A stretch of 41,644 nucleotides of DNA, taken from a virus (Duplodnaviria > Heunggongvirae > Uroviricota > Caudoviricetes). The notes under the pieces were generated by a model. That model was not told the origin of the DNA and did no database searches. It saw only the letters and a program-made list of their open reading frames with translations. The stretch is from IMG/VR virus record IMGVR_UViG_2617271072_000007, one strand, 5' to 3'. Both the position numbers and the translations under genes were made by a program. Shown in pieces: positions 3,952 to 27,327 of this stretch (the first letter of the stretch is position 1; each line of letters opens with the position of its first letter).

Positions 3952-5147
3952 GACTCCACCGTTATAACGATATTTTCCGGGGTACAGGACGCAGATTCGT
4001 TGTATCTGATATCAATGTTTGATGACGACAAAGCCCCCGGGGATTTCCCAATCGTCAGTTCCTGAATATCGTAATAGCGTGCATTCCCGCCACTCACCAC
4101 GCCAAGATTCGCCGGTGAGTAAATGCGACTTAAAAGGACCGAATCACCAATCATCAGACTATTGATATAGTCGGAAATAGCCTGCTGGATCTGCTGCCCT
4201 ATCTGTGAGGTATAACCCGTAAAAACTTTTAATTTAATCCGGGCATAAACAGGCACATCACTGGAACGCGAGAATTTGATTACATGGGGATTGCCGTATT
4301 TATCCGGAACCGTAACGGATGTTGTACCGTGAGTGGCTGTCCCCTGGCCTTTATTCCCTCTGATAGCCTGAGCAATATCCGTCACATCACCGCCATCTAC
4401 AATTACAGCAACAGAGTGTGGCGGTAACCCGTTACCGTCCTCCGAACCAGTATCGTTTTCATAGAGTTTGTGGCGGGTTACACCGGTAACATTAGAAACA
4501 GCACCATCCAGTGCTTCAAATGGGGTTATTGATGGCAACGCAACACTTTGCGACTGGCGGATACGTAACTCCGCATCAGTTTCTGCCGGAGTGCCCACAG
4601 TGGCTGCAGCAGGATTGGTTACCGAAACCCAGCCACGGGTTGGCGTATTAATTTCAGTGATAGTTCCAGCCAGCGCCGCCACTGCACCACTGACGGAACA
4701 TGTTGCGGTCACCATCACTGTACCATCCACGCCTACCACCACTGAAGCAGGCAAACGCCATATCACATTATTACTGTCTTTCACGCTGCCATTAATGATG
4801 GTTGTTCCGGCAGTTCCTGTAAGAAGCAAATCAACCGTAGAGTTCGTCGCGCCTTTACGTGAAATACCATTTATTTTCACGTTACTGGTCAGTGCAGCCC
4901 CATAGCCGGTTGCCGGTGAAAAACAGTTGTAGACAGTTATCGCCGTATTATTGGCATCATGAATCGCCAGCGCCATCAGAGCCACCATCTGGCCGTCTTT
5001 GCTGTCCGGTTCGAGGTAGGCATCACTACCATAAATCTGCTGAAAATAGCTAATCAGGGTGCTGAGTATCGTCTGATAATCAGGCGCACTGATCCCCTCC
5101 GCGGTTACCTTTGCAGATAAACCGAGAGAATCAAGGTTCAGAGCCAT
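3948..5147 (-). CDS. baseplate J-like protein
   Basis: 399 aa; conserved position between W-like and gpI-like genes. Confidence 0.8.
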   Translation of the reverse strand: MALNLDSLGLSAKVTAEGISAPDYQTILSTLISYFQQIYGSDAYLEPDSKDGQMVALMALAIHDANNTAITVYNCFSPATGYGAALTSNVKINGISRKGATNSTVDLLLTGTAGTTIINGSVKDSNNVIWRLPASVVVGVDGTVMVTATCSVSGAVAALAGTITEINTPTRGWVSVTNPAAATVGTPAETDAELRIRQSQSVALPSITPFEALDGAVSNVTGVTRHKLYENDTGSEDGNGLPPHSVAVIVDGGDVTDIAQAIRGNKGQGTATHGTTSVTVPDKYGNPHVIKFSRSSDVPVYARIKLKVFTGYTSQIGQQIQQAISDYINSLMIGDSVLLSRIYSPANLGVVSGGNARYYDIQELTIGKSPGALSSSNIDIRYNESASCTPENIVITVES

Positions 5148-23267: not shown

Positions 23268-23609
23268 TTACTCCTTAGAGCCACCAAACTTGTTACCGAT
23301 TACTCGCATTGCAGCCCCACGAATAGCATCGACACCGATCAGCCCAACACCACCACCAATGGCAACAGAAAGAGATTTAGGCCATCCAACATACTCAAGA
23401 GCGGATGCAAAGGTCAGCGTCAGAGCACCACAGAGCAAAATCTCAAGCGTTTTTCGTTTCCAGCCGCCGCCACCGCCAAAATAGGCAATGCGCAAGCCAG
23501 CCATAACAATTGACATAACCACTGCGCCCAACGGCGTATCTCCACGCCACCAACTTTGTAAGAGTTCCAGTAAGTCAGGCCAGGAATGAGGAGCATTGTG
23601 CATTTTCAT
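23268..23609 (-). CDS. holin with dual-start MKM motif
   Basis: RBS GGAGGTG before ATGAAAATG; hydrophobic helices; directly upstream of the endolysin. Confidence 0.7.
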   Translation of the reverse strand: MKMHNAPHSWPDLLELLQSWWRGDTPLGAVVMSIVMAGLRIAYFGGGGGWKRKTLEILLCGALTLTFASALEYVGWPKSLSVAIGGGVGLIGVDAIRGAAMRVIGNKFGGSKE

Positions 23610-23710
23610 ACTTCCCACCTCCGCCATTACGGGGTGTTGTTGAAAGGCGGGCCCTGCGTATACGCCCGTAGGATTGGGTTATGAGCCGTCCTTCGGTGGG
23701 CCCTGAATAC

Positions 23711-23735
23711 AAAAAAAGTTCGCCATAGCGAACCT
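23711..23735 (-). terminator. rho-independent terminator upstream of the lysis cassette (tR'-like)
   Basis: Minus-strand hairpin GGTTCGC-TATG-GCGAAC followed by U7. Confidence 0.6.
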
Positions 23736-23960
23736 TGTTAAATTTGTTAAAAAAGGAAGTTATTTAACATAATGTACGTTATAGGAACCACACGATCACC
23801 GCTCGCAATAGATTTGCGATGAAAGGCCTATTTAATCAACTTAAGTGGTCCAGAATAGCAAAATTCGAGTGAATAAAAGGTGCATAAAAAAGGGCAAAAA
23901 CTGCATAGCGTTTTTTCGCGACGAAAACCCTGTTTTATTAACTTTTACTGAGAATAGAGC

Positions 23961-23990
23961 ATTAAAAAAGGCCCCCTTGCGGGAGCCTCT
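23961..23990 (-). terminator. rho-independent terminator after the 113-aa ORF
   Basis: Minus-strand hairpin GGCTCCC-GCAA-GGGGGCC (one mismatch) followed by U6. Confidence 0.5.
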
Positions 23991-24054
23991 TCGTGATGAA
24001 CTGTTTTCAACAGATATCAGGCTAATCGGCTTTTTGGAATTCCACAACTATTTT

Positions 24055-24396
24055 TTATCTTACCTTGATGCCTGATGCCGTCAGATGTTTACGACAGTCC
24101 TGAATACCTTCGTTATAACCCGCATCGTAGAAGCTATCCGGCTTTGCCTTCAGCGCAGGAAGCGTCACGCTGGTAGCTCTTCGTTCGGCCAGAACACCTG
24201 CCTGAAAGAGTGTCCACATCAACTGAACTGCTGAATCACAGTAAGTAACATCTTCACTGTACAATTCTCGTTCAATCCTGATGCCAAGTTGAGCCTTCAT
24301 TGATGCGCCAATATTACCTTTGACCTGCAACGACAGGTCTGGGTACCTCTGTTCCATGAAGCTTTCAAATCTGTTGCGAACGCTGATCAGAGCCAT
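24055..24396 (-). CDS. hypothetical protein between Q and the lysis cassette
   Basis: 113 aa, RBS AAGGGAAC, starts about 30 nt after the Q stop. Confidence 0.5.
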   Translation of the reverse strand: MALISVRNRFESFMEQRYPDLSLQVKGNIGASMKAQLGIRIERELYSEDVTYCDSAVQLMWTLFQAGVLAERRATSVTLPALKAKPDSFYDAGYNEGIQDCRKHLTASGIKVR

Positions 24397-24427: not shown

Positions 24428-24851
24428 TTATGCCGCCGAGCAGCTCCTACGCAAAGTCCTGATAGCCTGAGGCTTTGACTGAACCGACTGATCCATTTCG
24501 AGCACCACATCCAGCATGGCTAAGCAACCGTCAATAAATCCCTCTGCCGCCTGAAGCCTCTTCAGAACGTGGGTGTGAGATACGCCGAGCTTCTCACCCA
24601 TCGCCCGCACGGGCATGGCCTGGACGTAATGCCACTCAAGGAGCGTGCACAGATACGGATCTTTTTTTCTTCAGGCAGCTCATAGCGGAGTTGATGATAA
24701 GACCGTCATTGTCACTGCATTTCAGCCTTCCAGACTGCGTCGCGGGTAGCAGATTCTTAAACCCGGCTGCAACAGGAGGAAAGTAGACGCTACCACCTTC
24801 ACTCGCTGCCCAGCCCCCCCAGCGCTCTAAAACCTGTTGAATATTACGCAT
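24428..24851 (-). CDS. late-gene antiterminator Q (phage 82 / QuuD-like); frame broken by a 1-nt indel
   Basis: MRNIQQVLERWGGWAA ... KRLQAAEGFIDGCLAMLDVVLEMD; two ORFs join if the A7 run (plus T7 about 24662-24668) is A6. Confidence 0.75.
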
Positions 24852-24980
24852 AGCTCTGACCTCTACGTTTTGCTACGAAAAAAAATTTTCTGAGAACTAC
24901 GTCTGTTTATCCGTGGGTGGGATAACGCAGTTCCGATTCGCTTATTACACGCTGTTATGTGCAAAAAATTCCTTGTTCGG

Positions 24981-25154
24981 CCTGTACCAACCTGTACCCA
25001 CCTGTACCAGCTCTTTTCAAACCTTTTCCCCAAGCGACTTATATATATATATGGGGTTCTTAGTAATTAGGTTGGTACAGATGGTACAGTTGGTACTGGC
25101 CTTTAAATTCAATTAGTTAAAATGTACCAACCTCTATTTTGAGGTTGGTACAGG
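24981..25154. repeat. iteron-type replication origin candidate
   Basis: Three tandem 10-bp repeats CCTGTACC(A/C)(A/C/G), a (TA)n tract near 25040-25052, then at least four more copies of the TGTACCAAC core in both orientations. Confidence 0.6.
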
Positions 25155-27327
25155 TTGGGACACCGCCTCAAAAATTCGAGTCATTTTCCCCCCAATTCGC
25201 CTTTGGGCACGCTTATACCCGCAATTTTGCAAAACATTACTAATTCGCATTTCTTCGCGTTTTCCGATGCGGTCAGGATTTAGCCCAATCGCATCACGCA
25301 AAACATCACTTGCGCGTAAAAATTCGCAATTTCGCGGAAGTTCATTAGTCATCAGGTCTGGCGTGTCGAGCCATTTCTCTACCGTTTCAAGCCAAGCATC
25401 CTTGATGGTGTACTGTTCATGGACACTCGCTGCCAGTTGTTCAGCCTCACGGAACTGGATACCCCCCAGACGCTGAAACACCTCACGAGCCTCAGCCCAA
25501 AGTAAAAGGAGATCTCTTTTTATCGCTTTCACGTCGACTTTCGACACTTCCACGGGGAGCCAGCGACGGTTACCAGTCTTGTCCGCAAGGAATTCGTCCT
25601 CATTGGTGGTACCAACGAACACCAGGCGACGAGGAAACTGGGTGGCGAACTCCCGGTATTTCGGGATCCAGTTTTCGTGAGTACGCGTCACAAACGCTTT
25701 GATTGACTCCAGCTCTTTGGTATTAAGTCCGCGCAGTTCACCAATCTCTGCCACCAGCCGACCACGCATTTTTTCGAGCGAGATCATCGTCTTTTTCGGC
25801 AAAAGAGATTTCAGTAAAAAACGCAGGATCAGGGCTCAGTGCCTCCACTCCGGAAGACTTACCGCAGCCCTGCGGACCAACGAGGATCGGCACCATATCC
25901 GCTTTGATGCCTGGCTCCAGTACTCGCCCCGCCAACGCGGTCCACATGAACATAGACACCGCACGGGTATAAGGCGTGTCGGCGGTACCGAAGTGCGTAT
26001 GGTAGAAACATTCGATGCGCGGCACGCCATCCCACTCCAGTCCGTTCAGCCAGGTGATCGCTGAATCGAATGGTTGTTCATCGGCTGCAAGTAACACCAC
26101 ATCGCGAATAAGTTCACGACCAACAGGTTTAAATCCCCGCTTTTCCATCGTGATGCGCAGGCGCGCATAATCCGCATCGGTGAATGCCCGCCATTGTCCG
26201 GATCCTGCAGGGGCAAACATGATTTCGTCGCGGAACTGGTCAAAGCGAATATCGATGTCCACAAAATCAGGGCGTACTACTGCTTTGGCTGCGTTGCTGA
26301 TGGTTGCCTCGATACGCCCCCATTTATCACGCTCGAAAGCAGGCAGCGGTAAAGGTTCCGCCACTTCGATGCTGGTCAGATCTTCGAAATCGTCGTTGCG
26401 GATCCCGATGGCATTCAGGAAATCTCCGTCATCACGATGCGCGCAACTGGCATGCAGGCATTTAAAATGCCCCTGCTCAAAGCCTGCGGTTCCCGCAGGA
26501 AAATAAACTGTGCTTGTTGGATCGCCTCCGCTACTGTGGCCGTCTTCAAACGGACAGCGGATATATCGTTCACCGTTTGCGCCATCCAGCAGCGTCCAGC
26601 CATTGGCATCAAGATATTCAGCTGTATCATCCGTCGCGCCGGGCGTGAATGCTGAACGGTCGCGCATCTTCGTGTTGCCCGCTTCGGTGGTTACCGACAC
26701 AGGGAGTTGTTCAGCCAGGCGCTGCCACAGCGTTTCAAGCTGCTCACCTGTAATAGCCGGAGGTTCATCCGGCAAACCACCGTCCCATTCAATACGCGCG
26801 CCGCTGCTGTGCGTACCACAGGCAACGAACTGCTGCCCGTTCGCCAGCAACTCGATAATGCCCATATCCCCCGCCAGGCGATGGATACGCTTACGGAAAT
26901 CACCATCAACGGCCAGCAGATACAGACACTTATTACTGTTTGCTCGCCAGCGTCGCGGCGGCGACTCACCCAGAAGTTGCACAAGTGTTTTGCGAATATC
27001 TGCCTGAATGTCTTCATCTTCGCTATCGCAGTCCAGCGCCAGCCAGCCATGGCCTGTACGCACGCAGATGCCATAATCCGGTTCATTCGACCAGCGGGCA
27101 AAATCATGCTCAGTAACAACATGCCCGGTCCATTGAGCAATACCGGTGACCTGGCGGTCCCGGTTATAGCGACTCGGCGTCTTACCCAACGCTTTCAATT
27201 TACTATCAGGGGATATGGTCGCACTGGGGTTACATACAACTGGGAGAAGATGAGCAGTCCGCCCCAATACCAGGTCGAAATGAAACCACTCATCAGGCGT
27301 AGCGCCCCATGGTTTGCTATCGGACAT
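25134..27327 (-). CDS. replication primase-helicase (prim-pol N-terminus, VirE/D5-type NTPase C-terminus); frame broken by a 1-nt indel
   Basis: Walker A GPQGCGKSS, Walker B-like VFVGTTNEDE; ORFs 25738..27327 and 25134..25802 join at plus T5 about 25792-25796. Confidence 0.85.

Follow-up and report, generated by a model that had tools for sequence, protein, structure and literature searches.

The window, as we term the whole 41,644-nt stretch of viral DNA that was analysed, carries on its minus strand, in the direction of transcription, a VapE-type primase–helicase gene, an iteron-rich gap, the antiterminator gene Q, a gene for a 113-aa protein (orf113), 445 nt of non-coding DNA that extend to the holin start, and the genes for holin, endolysin, Rz/Rz1 and terS. 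The gap between the end of the VapE gene and Q contains, at 24979-25163, about 10 copies of a 10-bp unit (GGTTGGTACA / TGTACCAACC) that lie in both orientations around a (TA)6 core; this array is probably the replication origin. Over 35.5 kb, the window is 99.92% identical to a prophage of Escherichia coli MINF_2E, from which it differs by five substitutions and 22 indels, each of the latter being a single base in a homopolymer run. The indels (at 24668, 25774, 20288, 20985 and 18 other sites) split Q, the VapE gene, the large terminase gene and others; none falls within 23640-24396. Given 22 homopolymer indels against only five substitutions, these differences, the Q frameshift included, are by their pattern assembly errors rather than marks of pseudogenes. 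Additionally, the segment 1117-2938 is inverted relative to the MINF_2E prophage; as it adjoins a pinE-type invertase gene and tail-fibre genes, it is an invertible host-range segment.

Q (24428-24851, with its stop codon at 24430-24428) appears in the window as two ORFs, through the extra homopolymer base at 24668; removal of this spurious A/T restores a protein of 140 aa, and the 423-nt gene is intact in the MINF_2E prophage. PF06530 is found in both halves (6.7e-25 and 2.8e-8), which assigns the protein to the Q933W/Q21 superfamily. It is 42-47% identical to the Q proteins of Stx phages, mEp390 and APSE; the similarity to phage 21 Q is marginal (phmmer E = 0.13, residues 8-75), and none to that protein was found at E≤0.01. 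A Q-family gene thus stands directly upstream, where a Q-dependent late cassette would need it.

The ORF of 113 aa that had been predicted some 30 nt beyond Q is present at 24396-24055, 31 nt past the Q stop, with an ATG start and an AAGGGA Shine–Dalgarno sequence 5 nt upstream. Since homologues with 45-86% identity keep the frame together with 26 invariant residues, orf113 is, on comparative grounds, a real gene. A database search retrieved 14 homologues (45-99% identity) that have the C-terminal motif KP..YDAGYNEG; the fuller motif common to orf113 and its homologues reads VQLMW...LP...KP..YDAGYNEG. Precomputed matches place the 99%-identical proteins P0001 and P0002, and all 14 homologues, in PF26207 (Phage_phiTE_015), albeit weakly in some loci, and PGAP labels the 99.7%-identical E. 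coli genes as 'phiTE_015 family protein'. A profile search of 1.84 billion representative proteins gave 16 matches at E≤1e-3, two of which are repetitive junk. The family is small and catalogued, with no assigned function, and orf113 is a rare gene. Neither local copies of Pfam and NCBIfam nor the PADLOC defence-system models gave a match; PHROGs returned only families of unknown function, plus a single 'head closure' label that covers a 52-residue stretch and that we regard as annotation noise. Moreover, there was no match in the PDB by sequence or profile, Foldseek against viral models found uncharacterised proteins only, and the fold searches recognised no DNA-binding or RNA-polymerase-binding fold. 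The predicted structure is soluble and mostly helical (pLDDT 73), and neither a signal peptide nor a membrane segment was found.

In five independent lineages, orf113 lies directly behind a Q gene of the same type (PF06530), with gaps that range from overlap to 31 nt: these are E. coli, Rahnella, a Yersinia ruckeri-type contig and two metagenome contigs, between which the identity of the ORF is only 45-48%. At one metagenome locus (L004), the orf113 start overlaps the Q stop. More distant PF26207 members are located in nin regions (L096) or behind other Q families, one of them in a post-Q moron cluster with HicAB and Fic (L095); in Vibrio phage Pm34, a homologue follows an unrelated antiterminator gene, and in the database protein P0019, what reads as the C-terminus of a Q protein precedes the orf113 domain. 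Of 5426 E. coli genomes, 62 have the full gene, and a further 32 have an allele with a 286-nt, out-of-frame deletion that retains the promoter region. Four predicted prophages share this deletion; as the 'phage' entries without orf113 are prophages predicted by PHASTER and not isolated virions (bioRxiv 10.1101/2022.06.29.498070), they are no proof that the deletion allele is viable. Furthermore, orf113 is absent from all 80 loci with related Q genes that were collected from other species. By this distribution, orf113 is a non-core gene that is absent from most relatives.

Both of the intrinsic terminators predicted ahead of the holin are there, within 2 nt of the coordinates first given, and their U-tracts occur on the minus strand only. 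The first, T1 (23964-23992), comprises a stem at 23992-23965, with a GC-rich 7-bp core, and a U6 tract at 23969-23964; its predicted folding energy of -19.9 kcal/mol (z -3.96) was equalled by none of 200 shuffled sequences. The second, T2 (23711-23736), has its stem at 23736-23715 and a U7 tract at 23717-23711, and its energy of -10.4 kcal/mol (z -2.4) was equalled by three of 200. With permissive thresholds, Rfam gave only sub-threshold, terminator-like matches over T1, and it recognised no family in the spacer that separates T1 from T2 (23737-23963), which is AT-rich (34% GC). Within this spacer, a 67-nt non-coding element (23936-23870) recurs at 84% identity, and in the same orientation, in an unrelated E. 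coli prophage (CP133811; L092 2001-2067), where it is located between terS and terL. A 21-codon hydrophobic ORF in the spacer was rejected: it lacks a ribosome-binding site, and its Leu-Leu becomes Ser-Ser in relatives. Indeed, no ORF conserved across relatives was recognised anywhere between T1 and the holin.

The leader of the lysis cassette (23610-23707) is structured, has a GC content of 60% and is 100% conserved in relatives. The repeats that had been noticed in it were located: GCGTATACGC at 23656-23665, and two copies of CAGGGCCC at 23649-23656 and 23698-23705. In the predicted fold of the leader (-39.4 kcal/mol, z -2.1), the repeats pair with one another through the two GGGCCC copies, modestly above chance, and the GGAGG ribosome-binding site right before the dual start of the holin lies within a predicted hairpin (23634-23613). 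The holin gene itself, S (23268-23609), belongs to the lambda family (TIGR01594, 7e-40; PF05106), in line with how RefSeq annotates the identical gene; it begins Met-Lys-Met (ATG-AAA-ATG at 23609-23601), with starts at 23609 and 23603. Two starts around a basic residue, together with a predicted upstream hairpin on the ribosome-binding site, are the hallmarks of a lambda S-type dual-start holin. This is the first late gene, and is followed by R, Rz/Rz1 and terS.

The original prediction, which supposed that the late promoter should lie between the two terminators, could not identify it with confidence, and the hexamers make the difficulty plain: the best matches to the sigma-70 consensus in the interval reach 8 of 12 positions, and the site favoured by comparison is a poor one, with 3+3 and thus only 6 of 12. 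Consensus promoter scans produced nothing usable on the minus strand and missed this site. The sole consensus promoter called in the interval is a plus-strand site (TTGTTA-18-CATAAT, 23744-23773), antisense to the late leader and directed toward orf113 and Q, which could conceivably give rise to an antisense RNA.

Comparison with related phages did supply a candidate. We place the predicted late promoter, pR', at 24047-24019, just past orf113 and upstream of both terminators: a -35 hexamer TTGTGG (24047-24042) starts 7 nt past the orf113 stop and is followed, after 17 nt, by the proposed -10 hexamer TAGCCT (24024-24019), for which the predicted transcription start is near 24012-24011. In terms of this start, T1 extends from about +20 to +48 and T2 from about +276 to +301, such that both terminators are interposed between promoter and late genes, as the switch would require. 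All five of the orf113 lineages have the same arrangement, in which TTGTGGAATTCCAAA lies 2-12 nt past the ORF stop, followed by a 17-nt spacer, TAnnCT and, 45-65 nt further on, a hairpin with a U-tract; in the window, this corresponds to TTGTGGAATTCCAAA-17-TAGCCT, which overlaps a predicted Q-type-specific element. The same palindrome and spacing are found, with TAGTCT or TAGCCT, behind the closest Q genes that lack orf113 (56-64% identical; Citrobacter at 64%, Symbiopectobacterium and Serratia at about 60%), where the site lies within or right after the 3' end of Q.

This layout is shared. It occurs behind about 50 related Q genes, those of 933W and Sakai Sp5 included, and 45 PF06530-type Q loci (among them 933W-type phage PA28, mEp390 and APSE-1) conform to a single order: a palindrome of 10-16 bp, an A-tract, TAnnnT, two bases, TA[AT]GAGT[GT]G and a hairpin with a U-tract, the latter at a distance equivalent to that of T1 in most of them. 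The pattern used to select the 45 loci itself required TAnnnT; the same hexamer is also present at the fixed distance in class-5 sites, which were found by their palindrome alone, and TAGCCT or TAGTCT recurs in the palindrome class of the window. A profile of the 45 promoter regions has the pR' site as its only match in the window (E = 0.078), and has no match there when the two loci of the same palindrome class are left out. Behind the Q genes of Symbiopectobacterium and Serratia (L014-L018), three GGAATTCC-type promoter units stand in tandem (e.g. at 2911, 3718 and 3815 in L014), with a terminator on the last copy.

The position of the start is consistent with mapping data from a Stx phage. 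In Sakai Sp5, the pR' start was mapped 258 nt upstream of the tR' 3' end (Sy et al., PMC7547250), tR' having been located at +258 by Term-seq (PMC7547250). On the Sakai Sp5 sequence, this distance puts the start 7 nt past TATCAT, the hexamer that aligns with TAGCCT of the window, and makes tR' the second hairpin past pR' rather than the equivalent of T1; by analogy, T2 would correspond in position to this mapped terminator. The family consensus TA[AT]GAGT[GT]G spans about -4 to +5. In the window, its place is taken by a diverged form, TATCTGTTG (24016-24008), which matches TAAGAGTGG in position across the 45 loci and is identical in seven of nine positions to TATGAGTTG of a sister E. coli prophage (L090). 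It is possible that this start-region element acts as a sigma-dependent pause element, with the proviso that TATCTGTTG contains no -10-like hexamer with both A2 and T6.

Overlapping the -35 hexamer and the upstream spacer is the near-palindrome TTGTGGAATTCCAAAA (24047-24032; core TGGAATTCCA at 24044-24035), which we propose as the binding element for Q. The 15-mer occurs only once in the window; an identical copy is found right past the ORF stop in four other loci (L003, L004, L093 and L094), and inside the 3' end of Q in the closest Q genes that lack orf113 (L010 and L013-L018). Across about 50 loci, there are seven palindrome classes, each of which is paired with one sequence type of the Q helix-turn-helix: TGGAATTCCA goes with GISHTxVLKxLQ (9/9 loci), TGTAATTACA with GISHN (5/5), TTTACGATCGTAAA with CSDT (5/5) and TTTACGTACGTAAA with CSDG (3/3), and the remaining three classes obey the same rule. 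Moreover, the two half-sites vary jointly, with GGAATTCC accompanying SHT where GTAATTAC accompanies SHN, and ACGATCGT accompanying SDT where ACGTACGT accompanies SDG. Part of this association could reflect the co-inheritance of neighbouring DNA. The symmetric nature of the changes, and the persistence of the pairing where the promoter is removed from Q by 1-2 kb of other DNA, argue for recognition of the palindrome by Q.

From the Q stop to the promoter, the distance across loci varies from 0 to 2272 nt, which implies that insertions between Q and pR' are common. In seven loci (L005, which is mEp390, L034, L038, L045, L053, L062 and L079), the Q stop and a palindrome-type late promoter are 0.9-2.3 kb apart, with other DNA in between. 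On this comparative evidence, the Q–pR' junction has repeatedly received insertions, as a site separate from the better known one between pR' and the holin.

The placement of pR' bears directly on orf113, which had been put forward as late-promoter cargo of the kind carried by Stx phages. The first part of that suggestion holds, in that Q and the lysis cassette are separated by an additional, non-core gene. The second does not: a cargo gene should be downstream of pR' in the late transcript, and since the predicted pR' is downstream of orf113, which ends 7 nt short of its -35 hexamer, the gene falls outside the predicted late transcript and, unlike stx, does not qualify as late-promoter cargo. 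The idea thus falls by a route other than the one envisaged, a late promoter mapping upstream of the ORF. Most simply, orf113 would be the last gene of the early-right operon (cro-like gene, VapE primase gene, Q, orf113), because it ends ahead of the -35 hexamer, because neither a promoter nor a terminator was called between it and Q, and because it overlaps Q in one locus. The presence of distant family members in nin regions and behind other antiterminators fits an early accessory role.

Two other accounts of orf113 have to be weighed against that of an accessory early gene. The gene might be a functional partner of this type of Q, for example by timing or modulating Q loading, which would account for its fixed position: in the five lineages, orf113 always comes between Q and the palindrome, P0019 apparently joins a Q C-terminus to the orf113 domain, and the Pm34 homologue is again found behind an antiterminator, albeit an unrelated one. 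Most Q genes of the same palindrome class nevertheless do without orf113, the 32 E. coli genomes with the out-of-frame deletion have lost it, distant members such as that in the L096 nin region are remote from any Q gene, and the protein has no recognisable fold for binding either DNA or RNA polymerase; we therefore think a partnership with Q improbable. Alternatively, orf113 might be a moron that is expressed in the lysogen from a constitutive promoter of its own over the Q stop (TTGCGT-16 nt-CATAAT, 24454-24427), with a transcript that ends at T1. No site in the interval matches the consensus better (8 of 12), T1 does follow orf113, the gene is optional (62 genomes have it, whereas many relatives lack it or have it deleted), and the L095 member keeps company with HicAB and Fic. 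The conservation of the site is uninformative, however, since it lies inside the Q coding sequence; no equivalent is present in L003 or in L004, where the start of the ORF overlaps the Q stop; orf113 matches no defence system; and with pR' lying between orf113 and T1, the gene would have no terminator of its own. Such a moron is, in our view, an unlikely explanation, on a par with the Q partner.

As to the promoter, nature has provided the equivalent of a swap experiment. In strain 16F5M1D1, a phage of the same backbone carries a different Q allele, whose stop codon is overlapped by a palindrome of its own (GTGCGCTACGCA), a -10 hexamer TACGCT and the start element TATGAGTTG; from the T1 U-tract onward, its sequence is that of the window. 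E. coli prophages of the L090 type likewise agree with the window from the T1 U-tract onward and, upstream of T1, have a promoter element specific to their different Q allele. Among the 40 matches listed, which are a spread sample of 145 matching genomes, 11, that of 16F5M1D1 included, match the non-coding interval only from position 87 onward. Q, palindrome, promoter and start region therefore appear to travel as one module with its junction at T1, and since the T1–T2 interval is shared by two Q specificities, a promoter located there would have to serve both; this is the strongest argument against a promoter between the terminators.

The position originally expected for the late promoter, in which a Q-dependent promoter such as TTGCGA-19 nt-TATAAC (23806-23776) would fire between the terminators, with T1 ending the early operon and T2 acting as a single tR', is accordingly very improbable: the AT-rich spacer does hold this promoter-like pair (4/6 plus 5/6, by eye), and the mapping in Sakai likewise includes a primary start within the pR'–tR' interval, at the 5' end of the short StxS RNA (PMC7547250), so that a secondary promoter there is possible, but the pair has a 19-nt spacing and a -10 hexamer without the final T, was called by neither scan, has no counterpart in L003, L004, L093 or L094, all of which possess the palindrome promoter, and lies in an interval that contains no element specific to one Q type.

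Overall, we consider it likely that the interval is a late-gene switch of the Q933W type in which a single accessory early gene separates Q from pR'. The early transcript would begin at the cro-like gene, extend across the VapE gene, the origin, Q and orf113, and stop at T1. Before Q is made, pR' would, judging from lambda, phage 21 and 933W, yield only short RNAs, of about 45 nt when ended by T1 and about 300 nt when ended by T2. Once present, Q bound to the palindrome would load onto RNA polymerase paused just past initiation, and the Q-loaded polymerase would pass T1, T2 and the leader to reach S, R, Rz/Rz1, the terminase and the structural genes. The orf113 product would be made alongside Q, as a delayed-early protein and not from pR', and this small, soluble, helical protein would presumably serve a dispensable accessory function in lytic growth rather than act as a toxin or as lysogenic-conversion cargo.

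For the window, it follows that the extra gene is not toxin-like late cargo, that T1 and T2 together would form the double stop that is usual past late promoters of the Q933W type, and that Q is not truly broken. More generally, genes can insert upstream of pR' as well as downstream of it, which changes the time at which they would be expected to be expressed. A by-product of the analysis is a layout of promoter and Q site that is readable directly in the sequence, for the family of Q proteins by which Shiga toxin expression is controlled, such that specific mutations become testable. A broader proposal, to which we give an even chance, is that the palindromes are the Q-binding elements of the whole Q933W-type branch, the Q proteins of Stx phages included, and are read by a symmetric Q dimer according to a simple code (SHT-GGAATTCC, SHN-GTAATTAC, SDT-ACGATCGT and SDG-ACGTACGT), unlike the direct repeat of phage 21, and that the junction of Q and its element has repeatedly taken in accessory genes with early expression, orf113 being an example. 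We found no description of such a code, or of this insertion point, for the Q933W branch in the literature searched.

Another point of comparison is phage 21 Q, which is placed in the same Pfam family by Yin et al. (bioRxiv 10.1101/651190) and for which structures are available (PDB 6P18/6P1A and 6JNX). Two protomers of phage 21 Q occupy a bipartite DNA site within the late promoter, and its action needs a promoter-proximal pause (PMC6606751). The site is a direct repeat between the -35 and -10 elements, with TGAGCA occurring twice and C at -21 and -13 (PMC6606751), whereas that of the window is an inverted repeat located further upstream, at about -32 to -23 by analogy with 933W. Lambda resembles the window in having Q, a constitutive late promoter, a short terminated RNA (6S) and a lysis cassette, with a dual-start holin and a hairpin over its ribosome-binding site; it differs in that its Q is from an unrelated family (PF03589), and in that the window has two terminators, as well as a gene between Q and pR'.

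The resemblance to 933W and Sakai Sp5 extends to the same Q Pfam family (42% identical), the same promoter layout, a first hairpin with a U-tract at about +25 to +50, 200-250 nt of AT-rich sequence and a second terminator. In these Stx phages, pR' is constitutive and is terminated in lysogens (PMC7547250). The specific elements differ: the palindrome is TGGAATTCCA in the window and TACGATCGTA in 933W and Sakai Sp5, the respective start-region elements are TATCTGTTG and TAAGAGTGG, and, judged by eye, the T1–T2 spacer has no sequence similarity to StxS. Furthermore, the window has a gene between Q and pR' that Stx phages lack, and no tRNA or toxin genes past tR'. In the metagenome relative L004, a tRNA-like 3' half (T-arm and acceptor end; 4440-4500) lies between the first and second terminators past pR', which recalls the tRNA genes found at the same position in Stx phages. 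Finally, mEp390 differs from the window in its palindrome class (GCGGTCCGC) and in its inserted gene, which is unrelated and on the opposite strand, yet it presents the same overall arrangement: a Q gene of the same family, foreign DNA, and then a palindrome-type pR' and the holin.
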